DNA of 64,000 nt from an uncultured Bacilli bacterium (GTDB lineage: Bacteria; Bacillota_I; Bacilli_A; RF39; UBA660), in the NCBI GenBank assembly GCA_934096035.1, contig CAKOKX010000002.1, positions 51,480 to 115,479 of the forward strand, read 5' to 3'. The position numbers and the translations under genes were made by a program. Shown piece by piece: positions 51,379 through 62,529 of the stretch. Positions within the stretch are counted from its first letter, which is position 1; every line of letters begins with the position of its first letter. The notes beneath the pieces are model-generated. The model was not told where the DNA came from. It was given only the letters and a program-made list of their open reading frames with translations, and did not search any database.

Positions 51379-51455
51379 GGTGCAATTGGTGAAGTGGTTA
51401 ACACGCCGGATTGTGGCTCCGGTATGCAAGGGTTCGATTCCCTTATTGTGCCCCA
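51379..51455 (+). tRNA. tRNA-His (anticodon GTG) with G-1 and an encoded CCA
   Basis: Extra 5' G opposite C73. D loop AGTGGTTAA. Anticodon arm CCGGA-TTGTGGC-TCCGG. T arm AAGGG-TTCGATT-CCCTT. Acceptor has two G:T wobble pairs. Confidence 0.85.
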
Positions 51456-51556
51456 TTGTGAAATCTGCTCGAACTTTTCGAGTTATGATAAATGACTAAT
51501 TCAGAAATGGATTAGTTTTTTTGTTATTAAAAACTATCCTAACTTAAAAAGAAAGG

Positions 51557-51838
51557 ATGGAAACAATGGTAAATATTATTAAAGAAGAACTTTCATTAGA
51601 AGAATCATTAAAAAAGAAAATTGAGTTTATATGTGATTTTACTAATACTAAACCAACTATTATTAAGGGTAATATTAGAAAAGTTGATAGAACTAACTTA
51701 ATTTATATTGAGCCACATAGAATAATAATTAATAACATAACATTTCTTGTGTTTAATTATTCTAATGAAATATTTATTGAAAACTTATCTAATAAGATTA
51801 AATTATCAGAATTAGAAGATTATTTAAAAACAATCTAA
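51557..51838 (+). CDS. small hypothetical protein (93 aa)
   Basis: RBS AAAGAAAGG before the ATG. No family recognised. Confidence 0.45.
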   Translation: METMVNIIKEELSLEESLKKKIEFICDFTNTKPTIIKGNIRKVDRTNLIYIEPHRIIINNITFLVFNYSNEIFIENLSNKIKLSELEDYLKTI

Positions 51839-51985
51839 ATACTACTTATTCCCTAAACAGTGAATTGACAAATCAAAAAAAAGTGATATTATAAATAACC
51901 AATGAAAGAGGTATTCTCTAGAAAGAGAGGTACATCTATGATAAAATATATACATAAACAAAAAATTTATAATATTGAATATTGT

Positions 51986-52037
51986 GAGGAGTCAGTAGTA
52001 TTTAGACTTTATTAAATACTATTGGCTCCTCTTTTTT
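51986..52037 (+). promoter_or_regulatory. terminator-like hairpin immediately 5' of the recombinase RBS
   Basis: GAGGAGTCAGTAGTATTTA-gacttta-TTAAATACTATTGGCTCCTC plus T6, ending 21 nt before the ATG. A promoter precedes it (TTGACA 51865-70, 16 nt spacer, TGaTATTAT 51887-92). A 25-codon ORF (51938-52015, MIKYIHKQKIYNIEYCEESVVFRLY) runs into the stem. Confidence 0.55.
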
Positions 52038-52052
52038 AGTAAAAGGAGTTGA

Positions 52053-53912
<1,860 letters not shown>

Positions 53913-54037
53913 AATGCGTGGCACGTTATGAAATTACAAAGTAATTTTGTAAGTGGTGATAGCAATTTAAAAATTAATACTTTATGAACTTTAACAATTA
54001 CGAAGTTTTGGTTATTGTGAAATAAAGTAAACGGTTT

Positions 54038-54092
54038 CTAAGGTGGTAAACCTTAGCTTCCATATCTTGTCTCTGACAAGATATATAGGAAG
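54038..54092 (+). promoter_or_regulatory. candidate oriT (two adjacent hairpins) upstream of the relaxase gene
   Basis: CTAAGG-tggtaaa-CCTTAG (54038-54056), then CTTCC-ATATCTTGTC-tct-GACAAGATAT-ata-GGAAG (54057-54092), which contains a perfect 10-bp inverted repeat. Confidence 0.45.
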
Positions 54093-54159
54093 TTATGAAT
54101 AATGACAAAGCCACTTTCGTGCCATTTTCAATATTCATAATTTAGGGGGTGTTAAAAAT

Positions 54160-55485
54160 ATGGAATTATCTTATTCACTACATTTAGGTAATGATAAAAA
54201 CAAATCTATTAAAGCAAGACAAGAAGCAAAGAATACTCCATCAGGTACTACATCAAAAAATAATAATGCTATTCAAAATGTTAAGCAATTAGGTAAAGTT
54301 AATCATCATAATTTAAGACAATATTATAATAATCAAGAACTAATTAAAACTATTAAAGGTTCAAATGATATTACTAAAGATGTTAAAGAATTATATTTAG
54401 ATTTATTTGAAGAATCTAGACTAAAATATAATAAAAAACAAACAAGAGATGATAGAACTATTGATAACTACTTTAATAAAATAAGTAATGATACAAAACA
54501 TGACCTTGCTTGTGAGATAGTTATTGAACTTGGAAACATGAAATATTGGGATGAAAAAAGCCTAGAATACAAATATCAAATGATACAAGTATTCGAACAA
54601 CAATTAGAAGATATACAAGAAATAGTTCCAGACTTTTATATAGCAAATGCTACTATACATTTTGATGAACATTCTCCTCATATGCATATAGTTGGAGTTC
54701 CAGTAAAAGAAAATTGTAAAACAGGTTTATCAAGACAAGTTGGTAAAACTTCCATCTTCACAAAAGAATCACTAGTAGTTATTCAAGATAAAATGAGAGA
54801 AAGATGTATTAATGAATTTAATATTGTTTATGGATTAGATTCTAAACTTAAAGAAAAAGAAAAAGGTAAAAATAGAGATATTACTTCATATGAAAGAAAA
54901 CTCTTTAATGAAAGAGTTAAAGGACTTAAACAAGAAATATCTAATCTTCAAGATGAAGTATCTGATTTAGAAGATAATAAAGAATCTATCAATAAACAAA
55001 TTACTAAACTTAATAAAGATAAAGATGATATAAACGATGAAATTGATAAAAAGAAAAAACTTAATAATAAAATTATTATTAAATCTAAAAATCAATTATT
55101 AGACGAAAATAAAAAATTAAAAGAAGAAAATGAACATTTAAAGAGTATCAATTATCAAACTGAAAATAGATACAATGATTTAAAAGAAAGAACAGATTAT
55201 CTTATTTATCATTTAAATAAAATAATTAAAAAACTTCCAGAATTTATACAAAATCTAATTTATAGATTATTTAATTACAATAATATAAATCTTAATTTTT
55301 TTAAACAACAATATGATCCTGAAGTTATAAGAAAGAGAGAAAAATCATTTAAAAGATTTAATCTATTTAATAAAAAAGAAATTGAAAAAGTAACTAAACA
55401 TATTAATGATGAAATGGATGAGTATACTGAAGAATTTTATAACGATAAAAAAGATAAAGAAAAAGACGATGGCTTATCATTATAA
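54160..55485 (+). CDS. MobV/Pre-family mobilization relaxase
   Basis: HFDEHSPHMHIVGVPV (HxDE...PHxH motif), followed by a long Lys/Glu/Asn-rich coiled-coil C-terminus. Confidence 0.85.
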   Translation: MELSYSLHLGNDKNKSIKARQEAKNTPSGTTSKNNNAIQNVKQLGKVNHHNLRQYYNNQELIKTIKGSNDITKDVKELYLDLFEESRLKYNKKQTRDDRTIDNYFNKISNDTKHDLACEIVIELGNMKYWDEKSLEYKYQMIQVFEQQLEDIQEIVPDFYIANATIHFDEHSPHMHIVGVPVKENCKTGLSRQVGKTSIFTKESLVVIQDKMRERCINEFNIVYGLDSKLKEKEKGKNRDITSYERKLFNERVKGLKQEISNLQDEVSDLEDNKESINKQITKLNKDKDDINDEIDKKKKLNNKIIIKSKNQLLDENKKLKEENEHLKSINYQTENRYNDLKERTDYLIYHLNKIIKKLPEFIQNLIYRLFNYNNINLNFFKQQYDPEVIRKREKSFKRFNLFNKKEIEKVTKHINDEMDEYTEEFYNDKKDKEKDDGLSL

Positions 55486-55500
55486 GTCATCGTTCTTTTT
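55465..55500 (+). terminator. terminator between the convergent relaxase and deaminase genes
   Basis: ACGATG-(16 nt)-CATCGT followed by TCTTTTT. Confidence 0.5.
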
Positions 55501-55505
55501 AAGTG

Positions 55506-55913
55506 TTAATCACTTTTTCCCCACCAATCAGGCAATAATTCACTCATTTTTTTTGTTTCATAAGTTTTATCGTCAACTAGTATTTCAATATTTTTTGAAT
55601 CTTTACCTAATTGCATTATTAATTCTCTACACGCTCCACAAGGAGCTCCACCAATTTTTCCATTAGGCATAATACAAACGATTTTAGATATTTCATCTTC
55701 ACCATTAGTTATCATTGTATGAATGGCATTTCTTTCAGCACATATACCTAAAGTAGAACAAGTATCAATACACACACCTGTATAAACATTACCATTTTTA
55801 GATTGAATTGCTGCACTAACCATTCCTGCTTTAATATGATTAGATATTTGTCTTGGATTTAATACATCTTTTGCTCTTACTATTAATAAGTCCCATATTT
55901 CCTTGTCTTGCAT
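55506..55913 (-). CDS. small cytidine-deaminase-fold zinc enzyme (Cdd / blasticidin-S-deaminase-like)
   Basis: 135 aa. CAERNAI and PCGACRE zinc motifs. The C-terminal ELLPDWWGK resembles the tail of the small tetrameric deaminases. Confidence 0.8.
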   Translation of the reverse strand: MQDKEIWDLLIVRAKDVLNPRQISNHIKAGMVSAAIQSKNGNVYTGVCIDTCSTLGICAERNAIHTMITNGEDEISKIVCIMPNGKIGGAPCGACRELIMQLGKDSKNIEILVDDKTYETKKMSELLPDWWGKSD

Positions 55914-56806
55914 AAATCAATCACCTCAGCCCATTTTTCAATATATTCTTTAGGAATATTCAAACTTCCTGAACCTATACCTATATCATTATTTGGTTTT
56001 TTATCTCCATGAAAATCGCTACCACCACTAATAAATAAATTATTCTTTTTTGCATAATCAAGAAGAATATTTATTCTATTATCACTTTCAGCGGATGGAT
56101 GAAAACATTCAATACCATCAAGTTTTACTTCTTTTCTCAATTCATCAATAAATCCAATTGTATCTTCAAACTTATATTCAAATGGATGTGCTAAAAAAAC
56201 TAATCCACCAGCTTCATGAATTTTATCTGCAACATCTCTGAATTTTGGAGTTGGGAATTTTTTCTTTTCATCAAGATAGAAAACACTATCTGGATTATCT
56301 AATCCAATTCTTCTAAAATCATTAAAAGAATTAGCATAACTACCTAATTTTTCAACATTTTCAGGATACTTAATTATTTCATAAAACAAATAAACGATAA
56401 AGAAATCTGTTACTGGAATATCTTTTTTAATATTATCTAAATTATATTTTAATCCAGCTCTCTCACACATTTCTAAAGAAGCTTTTTTAGCACTTTCAAA
56501 CTTTTCAGTTAGTATCTCTTTTGAGAAAAACTTATCTGACCAATCATTTATTATTTTTGGATTTTTAATGTTATATGCTAAAAACTCTATTCTCTTGCCA
56601 TTATCTAATGTTGCATTCATTTCAGCACCAATTACTATTTTTCCTGTAAAAATATTTTTCTTTAATGCCTCATCTTCGTATTGTCTACATGTATTATGAT
56701 CTGTTAAGGAAATATATTCTAGATGTTTTTCTTCACATTTTTTTAATACTTCTTCCAATGGTTTATCACCATCAGAATACAATGAATGCATATGCATATC
56801 TACCAT
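55883..56806 (-). CDS. PHP-domain metal-dependent phosphoesterase
   Basis: MHMHSLYSDG (HxH), LTDHN, FLAHP, ECFHP, GGSDFHG. Overlaps the deaminase gene by 31 nt. Confidence 0.82.
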   Translation of the reverse strand: MVDMHMHSLYSDGDKPLEEVLKKCEEKHLEYISLTDHNTCRQYEDEALKKNIFTGKIVIGAEMNATLDNGKRIEFLAYNIKNPKIINDWSDKFFSKEILTEKFESAKKASLEMCERAGLKYNLDNIKKDIPVTDFFIVYLFYEIIKYPENVEKLGSYANSFNDFRRIGLDNPDSVFYLDEKKKFPTPKFRDVADKIHEAGGLVFLAHPFEYKFEDTIGFIDELRKEVKLDGIECFHPSAESDNRINILLDYAKKNNLFISGGSDFHGDKKPNNDIGIGSGSLNIPKEYIEKWAEVIDLCKTRKYGTY

Positions 56807-56931
56807 TTAAACCACCACCTACAATAATTATACCATTATTTTTGTTGTTTTTATAAAAATTACATAAAATGAATGAAATATTGACGATAATATGTTATAA
56901 TAATTGTCAATGAAAGCAAAGAACTAAATAA

Positions 56932-56983
56932 GGGCTAGTAAAGACTTATTGATACAAAAATAGGTTTACTAGGCTCTTTTTTT
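56932..56983 (+). promoter_or_regulatory. terminator-like hairpin in the kinase gene leader
   Basis: GGGCTAGTAAAGACTTATT-gatacaaa-AATAGGTTTACTAGGCTC (about 16 bp with a bulge) plus T7, ending 17 nt before the ATG at 57001. The only RBS (GAGGTG) lies after it. Confidence 0.55.
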
Positions 56984-57000
56984 AAAAATGAGGTGTTAAA

Positions 57001-58983
57001 ATGAATTTTTTAGGTTCAACGATAAATGGATATAGTTTTTTAGAAGTCGTGGGTTCTGGCAGTTTTGGAACTGTTTATAAAGTACAAAAAGATGATAATA
57101 TCTATGCTGCAAAGGTATTTGCTGAATCTTTTGTATTAAGTGAATATAAGAATGATAGAAATAGAATAACTAATGAAATTGATGCGTTAAAGATTGCAGA
57201 TAGTGAAAATTTAGTAAAATACTATGATGATTTTGAATATACATCAGAGTCAGGTTTAAATACACATATAATTATAATGGAATTTGTTACTGGCAAAAAG
57301 ATTACTGATATTATTGATGAAATTAGTGATAAAGATAAATTAATTGATTTATTTAAGAATATTTTGAATGCTGTAAATCAACTTCATAATTTTGATATTA
57401 TCCACAGGGATTTAAAGCCTGATAATATATTAATAATGCAAGATGGAACAATAAAAATTATTGATTACGGACTTGCTAAATTAATTGATTTTTCGTCAAT
57501 TACTAGAACTGGTGATCGTGTTGGTAGTCCAATGTTTATGTCACCAGAACAAATTGTTGATAGTAAACATATAACAAAGAGAAGTGATATATACTCATTA
57601 GGTGTAATTTTATATTTAATGTTTACGAAATCATATCCTTATGAAGTTACTTCACTCGAAGAACTGGTTTATAAAATTATTAATGTGCCAATAATTCCTC
57701 CAAGCGAAAAAAATAAAGAAATACCACAATATATTGAAAAAATAATATATAAAGCATTATCAAAAAAGGATTACAATAGATATCAAACTATAGAAGATTT
57801 TTATCAAGCTTTCGATAATATTGAAGGTTTAAATAATATAACATCTTCTAAATATTATGCTTGGTTAATTAATGAAAAAAAAGTATATGAAACATATGTT
57901 GAAAACAATAATTTAAAATGTATTTTTCCATTACATTTAAAATATTCACAAAAAGGATTATATAATCATATGCTAAAAAATACAGATGATGTGATTATTG
58001 ACCCATCTACTCAACGATTCAGTTACGCCACTTTTTCAAAATATACAGGTCTAGTTAATTTATCTTATAGTCCTAAAACTGGTGTAATTGATTTAGATTA
58101 TTTAATAAATAAAAACAATCGCCAAGAATATATAAAAAATTGGTATAATGAAGTATCGGAGTTTAATAAAGTTATTTTGCCATATCATTATATTAGTAAT
58201 ACGAATTATAAAGCAGATAAAATTGAAGAGTGGATAAAAGTTAATGTTCAATTAATAAATGAAAGTATCGATTATATAGAAGAAGCCGGAAAAAAACTAG
58301 AGACATATGCAATGATATCAATAAACCTTAATAATTTGATGTATGAAAAAGAAAGATTGTTATCTTATTATGTTAATTTAAAAGTTGATAAATATATTGT
58401 ACAAATTTCTGATATGAAAAATCCAAATGTTCAAAATATTGCAACATATGTTGAATTTATAAAATTGCTACAAGTATCAACTGGTAAAGATGTAATTGCA
58501 TTAAAAGTTCCCGTAGCACTTGGACTATATTTAATATCAATTGGGATACATGGTTTTTCATGTGGAATCTCAAATTTAGAGTTTTTTGATGAAAATTACA
58601 TCAAAGATGAAACAGATCCATTTAATTTATATGCAAAATATTATTTTCCACAACTACTAACATTAATGTCATATTATCGTGCTGATGCTTATTCTTTACG
58701 AGATATTTACAATGAATTAAATAAATGCAATTGTAGTTATTGCGATGGAAGAGATTTTGTTGAAATAGCTGCTGAAAAAGACTATAAAATTAAATTACAT
58801 TTCCTTGAACAAATGAAAAAAGAATTTAAAAATTTGAATGACATCGTTGATGAAAATGAAAAAAAGTGTTATTATGTTAATAGAATAGAAAAGGCAATTA
58901 ATAACTTTGAAAGTTTGAAAAATAATGGTTTAATAAAGAAATCGGATATCAATGATATACTTTCTATTCTCAAAAGAATATAA
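57001..58983 (+). CDS. Ser/Thr protein kinase fused to a ~390-aa C-terminal domain with TGT-like hallmarks
   Basis: Kinase motifs: GSGSFGTVYKV, AAKVF (Lys), HRDLKPDNILI, DYGLAK, SPMFMSPE. The C-terminal part alternates beta and alpha segments, contains GIHGFSCG, and ends with CNCSYC-x18-H (KIKLHFLEQ). Confidence 0.8.
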   Translation: MNFLGSTINGYSFLEVVGSGSFGTVYKVQKDDNIYAAKVFAESFVLSEYKNDRNRITNEIDALKIADSENLVKYYDDFEYTSESGLNTHIIIMEFVTGKKITDIIDEISDKDKLIDLFKNILNAVNQLHNFDIIHRDLKPDNILIMQDGTIKIIDYGLAKLIDFSSITRTGDRVGSPMFMSPEQIVDSKHITKRSDIYSLGVILYLMFTKSYPYEVTSLEELVYKIINVPIIPPSEKNKEIPQYIEKIIYKALSKKDYNRYQTIEDFYQAFDNIEGLNNITSSKYYAWLINEKKVYETYVENNNLKCIFPLHLKYSQKGLYNHMLKNTDDVIIDPSTQRFSYATFSKYTGLVNLSYSPKTGVIDLDYLINKNNRQEYIKNWYNEVSEFNKVILPYHYISNTNYKADKIEEWIKVNVQLINESIDYIEEAGKKLETYAMISINLNNLMYEKERLLSYYVNLKVDKYIVQISDMKNPNVQNIATYVEFIKLLQVSTGKDVIALKVPVALGLYLISIGIHGFSCGISNLEFFDENYIKDETDPFNLYAKYYFPQLLTLMSYYRADAYSLRDIYNELNKCNCSYCDGRDFVEIAAEKDYKIKLHFLEQMKKEFKNLNDIVDENEKKCYYVNRIEKAINNFESLKNNGLIKKSDINDILSILKRI

Positions 58984-58998
58984 GTAAGGTGATATTAT

Positions 58999-59634
58999 AT
59001 GACATTCAAATATGAAAAGGATTTAGTTAATGAATTAGTTAAAATTTTACAAGATGAATACAATATTAAATATGTTGTAAGAGAATTACAAAATGGTAAA
59101 AACATTGCGGATGTAGTTTATTCAAAAGAATTACAAAGAGACTTTGCCATATTTGATGAATATATTGATAGTTATTATTATTTTAATGAAATAATAATAA
59201 ATAAGAAAAAAAATATCGATGAACTTGATATTCAAAATAAAGAACTACTAAAAAAATTTAAGAAATTCTTAAAAAAACTGGAAAAAGCAGGATATATAAC
59301 CATTAAAAACAATAGAATACATGTTATAAAGAAAGTTGATATTGCATCAAAAAATGTTGTGGCAATTGAGGCGAAACTTAGTGATTGGAAGTCTGGCTTA
59401 AATCAGGCACTTGCCTATAAGCAATATTCTGATTATGTTTATGTTGCTATTGATGAATGTTGTTATAAAAAAATAGATGTCAAACTATTTGAAAACAATA
59501 ATGTTGGTCTTATATTAGTTGGTAAAGGTCATATTAAAAAAATATTAAATCCCAAAAAAGAAAAAGAGTTCAATGATGATATTAAATACTATATGGTTGA
59601 TAAATTCTTATCTTCTATCAATTCAGTTGCATAA
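58999..59634 (+). CDS. PD-(D/E)xK nuclease-fold-like protein with an inserted wHTH-like segment
   Basis: 211 aa, starting 15 nt after the kinase stop. YEKDLVNEL...NIADVVYS...VVAIEAKLSDWK...QALAYKQYSDYVYVAI fits an E...D...ExK...Q pattern. Residues ~60-110 are Lys-rich and helical. Confidence 0.5.
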   Translation: MTFKYEKDLVNELVKILQDEYNIKYVVRELQNGKNIADVVYSKELQRDFAIFDEYIDSYYYFNEIIINKKKNIDELDIQNKELLKKFKKFLKKLEKAGYITIKNNRIHVIKKVDIASKNVVAIEAKLSDWKSGLNQALAYKQYSDYVYVAIDECCYKKIDVKLFENNNVGLILVGKGHIKKILNPKKEKEFNDDIKYYMVDKFLSSINSVA

Positions 59635-59650
59635 TCAATTTCACATTTAT

Positions 59651-59681
59651 AAGTAGCGCGAATTATCGATTGCTACTTTTT
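59651..59681 (+). terminator. intrinsic terminator after the kinase/nuclease-like pair
   Basis: AAGTAGC-(14 nt)-GCTACTT followed by TTTT. Confidence 0.6.
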
Positions 59682-59733
59682 AATTTTTATGTTAAACTAT
59701 TATTAGTGATTAGTTGTTTATCAACTTTTGCTT

Positions 59734-59767
59734 TAGGGTTTCAGATAACCTTTGTTATCGCCCCATT
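59734..59767 (+). repeat. degenerate tRNA-His 3'-end-like sequence (candidate att remnant)
   Basis: TAGGGTTTCAGATAACCTTTGTTATCGCCCCATT compared with the tRNA-His 3' end AAGGGTTCGATTCCCTTATTGTGCCCCATT (51428-51457). GCCCCATT is shared exactly, and I count about 25 matched positions by hand alignment with gaps. Confidence 0.45.
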
Positions 59768-59775
59768 AAAGATAC

Positions 59776-59805
59776 AAAAAGCAAGTATTTTCTACTTGCT
59801 TTTTT
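59776..59805. terminator. bidirectional terminator overlapping the ASCH gene stop
   Basis: AAAAAGCAAGTA-ttttc-TACTTGCTTTTT. Confidence 0.8.
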
Positions 59806-60178
59806 CATACTCAAAATTCCATATTCCCAGTCTTCCTTTAGCTTTAATAGGTTCAATAGCTAAAACATTTTCCAAAATCCATGCATATCGTCCAACTTCA
59901 TACAATCCACATTTATATTCCATTTTATTATTTTTCTTAACATTTTCAATAAATTCAGCTGTCATATAAATGCAATCTAATAACTTACATTTACAAATAA
60001 TCTCACCATACATCGGCGTAATCAATTTACTTAATTCATCATTTTGATTACTTTTACTTAAACTAGCATGAATATATAATTCACCACGATAATTTGTTTT
60101 AAAGTTTCTTGTTTCATAACATTTATACCCGTCTTTAATTAAACTAGCATAAGGTTCTTTTATACTTAAGACCTTCAC
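59792..60178 (-). CDS. ASCH (PUA-like) domain protein
   Basis: 128 aa. LSIKEPYASLIKDGYKCYETRNFKTNYRGELYIHAS is the typical ASCH N-terminal pattern. GTG start. Confidence 0.75.
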   Translation of the reverse strand: MKVLSIKEPYASLIKDGYKCYETRNFKTNYRGELYIHASLSKSNQNDELSKLITPMYGEIICKCKLLDCIYMTAEFIENVKKNNKMEYKCGLYEVGRYAWILENVLAIEPIKAKGRLGIWNFEYEKSK

Positions 60179-60241
60179 AATATCACCTAAAAGTAATATA
60201 ACATAGATTGTATATAATAAGCAAATAAATCCAAAATAATA

Positions 60242-61612
60242 ATGGTGAAATTTATGAACAAATTAACTAAATACAATAGCAAAAGAAATTTTAATATAAC
60301 TAGTGAACCCATAGGTAAAATTTCTAAGAAAAATAAAAAACTAACATTTTGTGTCCAACACCATATAGCAAGAAAAGATCATTATGATTTTAGATTAGAA
60401 CATAATGGTACAATGGCTTCCTGGGCAATACCAAAAGAACCTTCTTATAATCCCCAAGACAAAAGATTGGCAATAAAAGTTGAAGACCACCCTATTTCAT
60501 ATAAAACTTTCGAAGGAACAATACCTAAAGGTGAATATGGTGCTGGTACAGTTATGTTATTTGATCTAGGATATTACGAAATTGTAAAATATGAAAAAAA
60601 TTTAATAAAAGTTATTCTGCGTGGCAAAAGACTTAAAGGCATGTGGACTTTAACCCATTTTAAAGATGATAACTGGTTACTTATAAAAGATCATGACTTT
60701 TATGAAAACTACATTGATATAGTCAAATATAAAAGAAGTATTAAAACAAACAGAACCATGAAAGAAATAAAAGATAACGTAAACAAAAAAGAAATATTAT
60801 TAACCAATCCTTCAAAGAAAATAATTGGTAAAATTACTAAAAAAGATATCTTTAACTATTATAAAAAAATAGCACCATACATGATGCCTTATCTAGAAAA
60901 TAGAATTATAAGTGTAGTGCGAGCCCCATCAGGAATAAATAACAATACTTTTTTCAAAAAACATTTAGAAAATCAAAATGGTTATTTAGAAAAAATAAAC
61001 ATTTCATCTAAAAATGATAAAGAAAAAGATTATTACTATATACTGGATGAAATTGGTTTATTAAGTGAGGTTCAAATGAATAGCTATGAATTTCATATCT
61101 GGGGAAGTAATGCATCAAATAAAAATAAACCAAATATGATGGTATTTGATTTAGATCCAGATGAATCACTTCCTCTTGATAAACTAAGAATCGGAGTAAA
61201 ATATTTAAAAGAAATATTAGATAACTTAAACTTAAAGCCATTTTTAAAAACCAGTGGTGGCAAAGGCTATCATGTTGTTGTTCCTTTTAAAAATAATTTA
61301 ACTTGGAAAAAATTTTATAAAATTTCTAAAGATATAGCAAATATATTAGAAAATACACATCCGGAATTATTCACAACAAATATCAGAAAAGAAAATCGTA
61401 AAAGTAAAATATTTATCGATTATTTACGCAATCAAAAAAGTGCCACTTTCGTCGCACCATATTCAGTTAGATTAAGAAAAAATGCTCCGGTATCAATGCC
61501 AATAACTTGGAATGAACTTGACAAAATTAAACCTAATGAAATAACTATTGATAAAGCTATTACAAGGTTAAAGAAAAAAGACCCGTGGGAAGATTTCTTT
61601 ACTTCCAACTAG
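60242..61612 (+). CDS. LigD-type 3'-phosphoesterase + polymerase/primase protein (no ligase domain)
   Basis: PE domain: [34 protein letters not shown]. Pol domain: [40 protein letters not shown]. The start may instead be the ATG at 60254. Confidence 0.88.
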
Positions 61613-62529
61613 TCTAATGTATTTATATCAATTCCTTCAGCATCAAATAAATCTTTAAAAGTTGTTTTAAAATTAGCTATTTCTTTAACCTTTACATCAT
61701 CATATATATTTTTAGAATTTTTAATTGCTCTATAAAAATCTATTATAGACACAATTTTTCTGTTGTCATATAAAGCAAATGTAAAGGCATTAGCAACTAT
61801 TGTCAAACAAATATCTGGATATCTACTTGCAATTTCATAAACTCTTTTATATTCATCAGTCATTTCAACAATAAAAGCCATTATTTTTTCAGTTATAAAT
61901 GGTTGGTAATTAACCTTTACACCAATTTGATATTCAAGCTTAGGTAAAGTTCCCATTAAAATTTTTACAACTGTAGGTTTATCTGCTTCCAAAACATCAA
62001 TCTTTTGAAATCTACGAAGAAAAGCCCTATCTCTTAAAATGTATTGTTCATACTCTTCCGTAGTTGTAGCACCAATCATTTTAATTTGACCTCTATCTAA
62101 TCCTGCTTTTAGCATGTTTGCAAAGTCCATGCCACCAGATTTATTAACAAGTAAATGTGTTTCATCAATAAATATAATCGTATTTAATCTATCGCTTAAT
62201 TCTCTAACTAGTAAATCAATTCTATTTTCAACTTGTCCTTCACTCATAGTTTCTCCAATAAGGCTTGTAATATTTACTTTAATTAAAGAATAATTTTTCA
62301 AAGCATCAGGTACTAATCCTTTTTGAATTCTATATGCCAGTCCTTCTACAATTGCCGTTTTCCCAATACCAGGTTTACCAACAAGTAAAGCACTTTTTTC
62401 GGGTGTTAATAAAGCTAAAATAATTTGTTTTATTTCTTCATCTCTTGCAATTGCAGGATCAGTTATATATTCTTTTGTTGTTAAATCAACGCCATATCTT
62501 TCTAACATACTTATTTTTTCATTATTCAT
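61609..62529 (-). CDS. stand-alone AAA+ ATPase resembling Clp/Hsp100 NBD1
   Basis: 306 aa. [14 protein letters not shown], Walker [16 protein letters not shown], Walker [18 protein letters not shown]. No N-domain, middle domain or NBD2. Confidence 0.75.

Follow-up and report, generated by a model that had tools for sequence, protein, structure and literature searches.

A conserved gene pair encoding a kinase fused to a tRNA-guanine transglycosylase-like domain and a PD-(D/E)xK-like protein: a candidate bacterial defence module

What could a serine/threonine kinase be doing on the same polypeptide as a domain with the predicted fold of a tRNA-guanine transglycosylase (TGT), next to a gene for a nuclease-like protein? 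The question is raised by two genes in a 64,000-nucleotide (nt) stretch of DNA from an uncultured Bacilli bacterium (GenBank assembly GCA_934096035.1, contig CAKOKX010000002.1, positions 51,480 to 115,479), referred to here as the window; positions are counted from its first letter. The first gene encodes the kinase–TGT-like fusion, and the second, which starts 15 nt downstream, encodes a protein that we call the partner. An earlier note, made from the letters of the window, had singled out the two genes as a candidate undescribed module, perhaps of defence. Translation of the open reading frames (ORFs) reproduced the gene boundaries, the 15-nt spacing, and all the kinase, TGT-like, and partner motifs quoted in that note. 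We give an even chance to the reading that the pair is an undescribed two-gene defence or conflict module, most likely one directed against phages or mobile DNA. In this reading, a TGT-fold protein rewired into a reader would, with its nuclease partner, recognise or attack foreign nucleic acid, and the response of the cell would come from the fused kinase. The case for a defence role of the cassette is circumstantial.

Fold and conserved residues of the two proteins

The C-terminal domain of the fusion protein was predicted by AlphaFold2 from a 53-sequence alignment with a predicted local distance difference test (pLDDT) score of 87.3 and a predicted template-modelling score (pTM) of 0.89. The model alternates between strands and helices, ends in a helical tail, and agrees in its secondary structure with the beta segments that the earlier note had listed. 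Comparison of the model with the Protein Data Bank (PDB) using Foldseek gave 176 matches at E ≤ 0.001, of which the best 50 are without exception TGT or QTRT1 structures (Z. mobilis TGT, mouse and human QTRT1), with a probability of 1.0, E-values of about 1e-6, and template-modelling (TM) scores of 0.55–0.62 over about 390 columns at 8–11% identity. The TGT-like call of the earlier note is thus borne out over the full length of the domain and by TGT structures only. Models of phage queuine-transferase or DpdA-type proteins match the domain less well, with TM scores of 0.33–0.48.

No family covering residues ~290–660 was found in Pfam (even at E ≤ 1), NCBIfam, PADLOC, or PHROGs, and the TGT family PF01702 was not among the matches. 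A 42-sequence profile of the domain, compared with PDB sequences, retrieved no TGT and gave chance matches only. When the family profile was aligned by hhalign to E. coli Tgt alone, the probability was 1.4%; against a profile of 75 TGT sequences the global mode failed, and local blocks had probabilities of 3% and 0.3%. The two best local blocks are collinear despite their low probability and were taken as support for the register only. In these alignments, C576, C578, C581, and H600 of the fusion protein correspond to C302, C304, C307, and H333 of E. coli TGT, and the beta4–beta6 region aligns in the register predicted by the fold. When viral contigs were scanned with E. coli Tgt as the seed, no genes other than near-identical ones were retrieved. 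The kinship of the domain to TGT is visible at the fold level only.

Reference numbering was taken from an alignment of E. coli TGT with that of Z. mobilis, which gives the residue pairs D89/D102, D143/D156, and D264/D280, together with the zinc ligands. In TGT, D89/D102 of the LTDSGG motif is the general acid/base, D143/D156 recognises guanine or preQ1, and D264/D280 of the GxDMFDC motif is the covalent nucleophile. The corresponding positions were compared in the kinase-fused members and in an enlarged family of 65 kinase-fused and stand-alone sequences. The four predicted zinc ligands are invariant in the 42 kinase-fused members and are kept in 60–64 of the 65 sequences of the enlarged family. 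The DPST motif is conserved to a similar degree (D334 in 64, P335 in 65, and T337 in 60 of the 65), and D334 is positioned at the end of the strand that matches topologically the one ending in Asp89 of E. coli and Asp102 of Z. mobilis TGT, an assignment made from strand order, with no significant alignment covering D334. The position of the nucleophile Asp264/280, located in the GIHGFSCG strand, is occupied by Ser in the window protein and by Ser, Thr, Glu, or Gly in its relatives, in keeping with the earlier observation that conservation does not extend to the Asp positions of TGT. No conserved acidic residue was found in or after the strand corresponding to that of the guanine-recognition Asp143/156 (residues 388–404, ...ILPYHYISNT), where hhalign pairs L-P-Y-H with the T-P-Y-P just after E. 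coli D143. The signature common to the kinase-fused and stand-alone proteins consists of D334-P-x-T337, P394, G508, G515, G522, Y548, and the four zinc ligands; R339, H396, N400, K/R502, and E531 are conserved in the kinase-fused clade only. The TGT-like pocket would be functional but would not be a canonical covalent base-exchange site.

The partner was predicted by AlphaFold2 with a pLDDT of 93.7. In the model, strand 2 carries D38 and strand 3 carries E124-A-K126. Among 31 homologues with identities of 43–96%, no substitution was seen at E6, E29, D38, E124, K126, D129, W130, Q136, or Y140, and these residues include the E...D...EAK...Q layout that had been picked out from the window alone. 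The ExK motif followed by QxxxY recalls the motif of RecB/Cas4-type nucleases. The winged-helix-like insert between core strands 2 and 3 is supported by local Foldseek matches to winged helix-turn-helix (wHTH) regulators and by a weak Pfam match to WH_eIF2D (E 5e-4, below the cut-off). The best fold match of the partner in the PDB is 3dnx (probability 1.0, E 2e-3, 94 columns), which was listed as a PD-(D/E)XK structure by Laganeckas et al. (PMC3045609); BsaWI, SfsA, and EndoMS are among the matches of low probability. No family in Pfam, NCBIfam, PADLOC, or PHROGs covers the partner, and its profile gave chance matches only among PDB sequences. The model is consistent with a PD-(D/E)xK-type core carrying a wHTH insert, and the partner is a predicted nuclease.

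The kinase domain at the N-terminus of the fusion protein has a complete catalytic set by translation, comprising the GSGSFGTV glycine-rich loop, AAK (K38), the HRD aspartate D137 (HRDLKPDN, positions 57403–57426), N142, the DYG aspartate D155, and SPE. In homologues, the conservation of each of these residues is complete or reaches at least 90%, and the kinase is predicted to be catalytically intact and active. The best PADLOC matches of the fusion protein are PD-T4-6 (E 5e-58) and mad6, with MkoA also found, and all of them end by about residue 290. NCBIfam gave partial matches to PknB, MAD6, and PglW, confined to the kinase domain and far below the cut-offs, in which PknB scores as well as the defence-kinase models. 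Models of PD-T4-6 also label the housekeeping PASTA kinase of every S. thermophilus genome (PMC11514479). The identification of the fusion as PD-T4-6 was rejected on these grounds, as a generic match to a kinase domain.

Linkage, distribution, and exchange of the third module

Searches with the C-terminal domain retrieved 347 homologues and those with the partner 83, and a scan of one genome per species identified 49 loci encoding the fusion; the two ORFs are not a chance pair. The hosts are Firmicutes (Lachnospiraceae, Clostridia, Bacilli), Sphaerochaetaceae, Bacteroidota, Ignavibacteriae, Desulfobacterota, Planctomycetota, Aminicenantes, Calditrichia, and several lineages of the candidate phyla radiation (CPR), about ten phyla in all. 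The fusion homologues are 660–700 amino acids (aa) long across Firmicutes, Bacteroidota, Desulfobacterota, Planctomycetota, CPR, and other groups. Five of the 49 loci stop at a contig edge and were left out of the linkage count. A partner homologue is directly adjacent to the fusion gene in 39 of the 44 assessable loci; 37 of these partners are co-directional, with gaps of -50 to +23 nt, and two are convergent and overlapping. Pairwise identities of the TGT-like domain and of the partner are correlated in a mirror-tree comparison (r = 0.93, Mantel 0/2000), with r = 0.64 for the pairs below 50% identity. Clustering of the neighbouring ORFs of 50 loci revealed no third conserved gene, the next commonest cluster being present in 10 of the 50. 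The fusion and partner genes are inherited and diverge as a unit, and the tight pairing proposed in the earlier note extends across phyla.

Single loci show variants of the pair, two of which are apparently decayed copies. In a Christensenellaceae chromosome (L044:4064-9704), the kinase, the TGT-like domain, and the partner survive only in pieces. In an isolate of Petralouisia muris (L013:4264-6261), the fusion is encoded by two separate ORFs, the result of a frameshift or a sequencing error. The most divergent kinase–TGT-like fusions, with 23% identity, are those of loci L046 and L048, both without a partner.

When 1.84 billion representatives were searched exhaustively with a hidden Markov model of the TGT-like domain alone, 106 clusters were found, composed of 28 kinase fusions, 26 full-length stand-alone proteins of ~390–430 aa, and 52 fragments. 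The family is rare and patchy, and no fusion to a domain other than the kinase was present among the 106 clusters. The stand-alone proteins belong to no Pfam family. Wherever the flanks of a sampled stand-alone gene could be assessed, they included an adjacent partner homologue (E 4e-19 to 3e-28), either upstream (L051, L054, L056, L058, L059, L060) or downstream in convergent orientation (L055, L057). The 3' end of the stand-alone gene is overlapped by a gene for a PIN_3 RNase in L055, L057, and L060, and by a DUF3800 gene in L051–L053. Type VII retrons use DUF3800 as their RNase H2-like effector (PMC7736814), and it is described as a frequent companion of mobile elements and defence systems (PMC13594972). 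Because the kinase-less relatives retain the partner, the TGT-like protein and the partner constitute the invariant core of the family. The kinase, PIN, and DUF3800 proteins fill the place of an interchangeable effector, and the kinase is not the defining part of the family.

Annotated plasmids, annotated phages, and IMG/VR contained no match to the family. Because of its absence from these collections, the family is regarded as host-side, and a phage or plasmid gene was rejected as an explanation of the pair. Carriers include the cultured gut Lachnospiraceae Waltera hominis and Petralouisia muris.

Comparison with known systems and possible functions

The superfamilies involved (TGT/DpdA, Hanks-type kinases, and PD-(D/E)xK proteins) are already known in defence; their combination matches no named system that we searched. 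PADLOC, NCBIfam, and Pfam matched the generic kinase only, and no description of a kinase combined with TGT or DpdA was found in the literature, which upholds the earlier view that the pair belongs to no described family. The cassette does not qualify as a Dpd system, as PD-T4-6/Stk2, or as a canonical TGT.

Canonical TGT and QTRT1 (PF01702) share with the domain the full-length barrel and zinc subdomain and the aligned CxCxxC...H ligands; the invariant Asp of the domain lies at the end of the strand that, by topology, would correspond to that of D89/D102. The domain differs from them in its ~9% identity with no profile match, in the loss of the nucleophile and guanine-binding Asp, in having a kinase on the same chain or a nuclease-type protein as its partner, and in its rare and patchy occurrence, whereas TGT is universal. 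DpdA of the Dpd system is likewise a TGT-superfamily protein, acts on DNA in defence, and is detectable through phage models as a structural relative. However, the structural similarity is lower (TM 0.33–0.48), the catalytic make-up is different, and the partner set here consists of the wHTH PD-(D/E)xK protein together with a kinase, PIN, or DUF3800. Among the 50 loci, no DpdB ParB-like ATPase, DpdC, or preQ0-synthesis gene is conserved near the cassette, and the 25 commonest Pfam families in the flanking genes do not include ParB, DUF328, or QueC/D/E. The BREX-related system BRC, which contains a TGT (PMC12839542), was also rejected, because its seven components are different ones and include no kinase fusion.

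An intact Hanks-type Ser/Thr kinase is common to the fusion protein and to Stk2, PD-T4-6, Mad6 of MADS, PglW of BREX type 2, and TerY-P, none of which has a TGT-fold domain or this partner. PD-T4-6 and Stk2 act as single genes, whereas the cassette has a linked partner and the kinase is dispensable in the wider family. The partner resembles wHTH-linked PD-(D/E)xK proteins (3dnx-like, RecB/Cas4-type, and Mrr-like type IV) in the D...ExK...QxxxY motif and in combining a winged helix with a predicted nuclease core, whose fold match is a modest one. Unlike in these proteins, the wHTH of the partner is inserted inside the core, and the partner is tied to a TGT-fold protein and has no sequence-family match.

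In the reading of the pair as a defence module of the sensor–effector kind, the TGT-like domain, which appears to have lost the Asp residues of covalent catalysis and guanine recognition and to retain one invariant Asp and the zinc subdomain, would be a base-flipping nucleic-acid reader, or possibly a hydrolytic glycosylase, and not a base-exchange enzyme. Its target would most likely be DNA, because the constant partner is a predicted wHTH nuclease. The TGT-like protein and the partner probably form a complex. Recognition of foreign or abnormal nucleic acid would engage the partner nuclease and switch on the fused kinase, which might then phosphorylate host or phage proteins and arrest the infection, by analogy with Stk2-type abortive infection. 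The analysis shows the folds, the conserved motifs, the gene linkage, the co-evolution, the exchange of modules, and the absence from the libraries searched; complex formation, the ligand, the direction of signalling, and the defence role are what we infer. More tentatively, the TGT-fold and wHTH-PD-(D/E)xK proteins may represent a new nucleic-acid-sensing core of an immune-system family with swappable effectors. The TGT scaffold, turned from base exchange to another use, would recognise by base flipping, or remove by hydrolytic excision, unusual bases (e.g. of the 7-deazaguanine type) in invading DNA or RNA, and this would be coupled to phosphorylation-based abortive infection.

Several observations weigh against a defence module of this kind. 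Five fusion loci (L015, L018, L019, L046, L048) lack the partner, and three of them lie among ordinary genes; many neighbours across the loci are housekeeping genes, and in two lineages the pair is found at a stable chromosomal site. The nuclease-fold match of the partner is modest in both E-value and aligned length, and the mapping of TGT catalytic residues is based on strand order and low-probability hhalign blocks and not on a residue-level superposition. The PIN and RNase H-like third modules suit an RNA target equally well, and the ligand may be DNA or tRNA.

The most probable alternative, although we consider it unlikely, is a tRNA-directed abortive-infection or toxin module, in which the TGT-like domain would bind tRNA, as canonical TGT does, and bring the effectors to the translation apparatus, and the partner would be a regulator or an antitoxin. 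The closest structures are those of tRNA enzymes and not the phage DpdA models, the PIN_3 and DUF3800 third genes are of the RNase type, and one partner-less fusion gene (L018) overlaps the start of a glutamyl-tRNA synthetase (GluRS) paralogue. The adjacency to GluRS was seen only once, however, and the wHTH and intact PD-(D/E)xK/QxxxY motif of the partner are typical of DNA enzymes, while the Asp with which TGT recognises guanine is not kept.

Somewhat less probable still is a function outside defence, either as a signalling kinase with a nucleic-acid sensor for DNA repair or stress, or as an addiction module that stabilises genomic islands. It would agree with the stable chromosomal location and housekeeping neighbours in several lineages, with the LigD-like, ASCH, PHP, and deaminase genes beside the cassette in the window, and with the PP2C phosphatase and second kinase near the pair in locus L145. 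The repair-like neighbours of the window are nevertheless not conserved with the cassette, which recurs with different flanks; the third modules are interchangeable and of effector type; and with 106 clusters in 1.84 billion representatives, distributed over about ten phyla, the family is rare and patchy.

A Dpd-like modification-restriction system, in which the TGT-like domain would insert or exchange a base in host DNA, the partner would cut unmodified DNA, and the kinase would have a regulatory role, has on its side the TGT fold with its zinc subdomain and one conserved Asp at a predicted catalytic position, the adjacent nuclease-type partner, and the role of DpdA-type TGT relatives as established DNA modifiers (summarised in PMC12839542), but is improbable in view of the S/T/E/G at the nucleophile position and the missing guanine-binding Asp, the lack of conserved DpdB-like, DpdC, and preQ0-synthesis genes nearby, the swapping of the kinase for PIN or DUF3800, which a modification enzyme does not need, and a structure that is closer to tRNA TGTs than to phage DpdA-like models.

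If the pair is a defence system, a catalytically rewired tRNA-guanine transglycosylase fold would be a new type of sensor in prokaryotic immunity, and the TGT superfamily would have been recruited into conflict systems a second, independent time after DpdA. With kinase, PIN, and DUF3800 naturally replacing one another beside a constant core, there is a ready handle for separating sensing from killing by experiment, and the kinase version would be a tractable case of a Hanks-type kinase switched on by a nucleic-acid cue. Two protein families not covered by Pfam, NCBIfam, PADLOC, or PHROGs would gain annotation, and carriage by Waltera hominis and Petralouisia muris makes the module testable.

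Layout and genomic surroundings of the cassette

The window has a G+C content of ~25%, and the features of the cassette and its surroundings are summarised in Table 1. The limits of the cassette were set by blastn comparison with the closest relatives, in which synteny breaks on both sides of it: positions 56919–59770 are 92.6% identical to locus L036, 56930–59634 are 85% identical to L001, and 56930–58647 match L002, where the contig ends.

Table 1 Positions of the cassette, its parts, and the surrounding genes in the window
Feature	Position	Strand	Basis or remark
Whole cassette (leader, both genes, tail)	56919..59770	+	Block common to closest relatives; flanks differ
Kinase–TGT-like fusion gene	57001..58983	+	660 aa
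Hanks-type Ser/Thr kinase domain, residues 11–262	57031..57786	+	Pfam PF00069 Pkinase, E 4.6e-49
TGT-fold (beta/alpha)8 barrel and C-terminal zinc subdomain, residues ~285–660	57853..58980	+	AlphaFold2 and Foldseek
DPST motif, end of barrel strand (VIIDPST)	58000..58011	+	D334-P335-x-T337 near-universal
GIHGFSCG strand, counterpart of TGT GIDMFDC	58543..58566	+	Fold order and collinear hhalign blocks
Predicted zinc site CxCxxC-x18-H (C576, C578, C581, H600; CNCSYC)	58726..58800	+	Conservation
Partner gene	58999..59634	+	211 aa; ribosome-binding site AAGGTGA upstream
Winged-helix-like insert, residues ~50–115, between core strands 2 and 3	59146..59343	+	Secondary structure of model
IEAK...QALAY, ExK catalytic motif followed by QxxxY	59365..59418	+	Translation, homologue conservation
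Promoter-like site, ATGAAA-17-TATAAT with extended -10 TG	56873..56901	+	Consensus match only, 10/12
Terminator-like leader hairpin and U7	56930..56985 (hairpin 56930–56978)	+	-17.5 kcal/mol
Weak terminator-like hairpin and T-run 3' of partner gene	59651..59690	+	-9.6 kcal/mol
tRNA-His	51380–51455	+	Context
93-aa ORF	within 51380–55485	+	Context
Large serine recombinase	52059–53912	+	Context, upstream of cassette
Mob_Pre relaxase	54160–55485	+	Context, upstream of cassette
ASCH-domain gene	59792–60178	-	Downstream of cassette, beside LigD-like gene
LigD-like gene	60242–61612		3'-phosphoesterase and primase-polymerase domains, no ligase domain

The leader hairpin is located just 5' of the ribosome-binding site GAGGTG (56990–56995) of the fusion gene, and its stability is only modestly better than that of shuffled sequences (z = -1.65). 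An equivalent hairpin with a T-run is present at -77 to -22 from the start codon in the three closest loci (L036, L001, and L002), where the position and shape are kept and the bases of the stem and loop are changed. It was not found in clades beyond the close Bacilli loci. A search of the island against Rfam identified the tRNA-His only and assigned no family to the leader hairpin, which may be an attenuator or an antitermination switch; an attenuator would hold expression low. The promoter-like site falls outside the block conserved with L036 and L001. The hairpin downstream of the partner gene was not listed by a scan for consensus terminators and is not conserved in the relatives. The earlier proposal that the two genes share a leader hairpin and a terminator thus stands for the hairpin, which the three closest loci retain, and less so for the terminator, which is weak and specific to the window.

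The earlier note had also placed the pair inside a mobile element. The serine recombinase and relaxase are indeed encoded upstream, and L036 keeps both of them. However, in L001 and L147–L150 the cassette directly follows nitroreductase and tRNA-His genes, with no recombinase or relaxase between, and its status as cargo of a recombinase/relaxase element is not firmly supported. Downstream synteny is lost in L036, L001, and L147–L150, and a search for att-type direct repeats around the island gave only short chance repeats. It is possible that the cassette is cargo of such an element; a variable spot adjacent to tRNA-His is the safer description.

Between the relaxase and the cassette, the minus strand of the window carries genes for a cytidine-deaminase-like protein (135 aa) and a PHP-domain protein (307 aa) that overlap by 31 nt (55506–56806). 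Because this segment is replaced by unrelated DNA in L036, it is regarded as separate cargo. The LigD-like gene lies elsewhere in the related genome L147, ~8 kb away on the other side. The GC skew of positions 52000–62000 ranges from +0.29 to -0.07, compared with about -0.3 to -0.5 in the flanks, and the stretch of altered skew at ~52–62 kb coincides with the run of plus-strand island genes beside tRNA-His.

In some other loci the pair has neighbours of the defence or mobile-element kind, a context that is suggestive only; they include MmeI-type restriction-modification genes (three loci), a Type I S subunit, DRT, PDC-S13, UvrD/GajB-like helicases, serine recombinases, and Bro-N. The stand-alone locus L051 has Abi_C and RelA_SpoT as neighbours, and L055 has an integrase, an SNF2 helicase, and a methyltransferase. 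The partner-less fusion gene of L046 (L046:3864-12348) is positioned between genes for a PLD-SNF2 helicase and a NACHT/STAND NTPase, together with that of a 331-aa protein, which may be an alternative partner set. In L018 (L018:7143-12546), the partner-less fusion gene overlaps by 4 nt with the start of the GluRS paralogue, which is followed by a UvrD-like helicase gene. HipA-type kinases target GltX, and the overlap might be a hint of a translation-related target. In a widespread Lachnospiraceae lineage (L145:4293-8895, also L146), the pair is located immediately 3' of a Pkinase-LRR_5-vWA-PP2C_2-TerY_C cluster, which resembles the TerY-P defence triad; its PP2C could antagonise the kinases.

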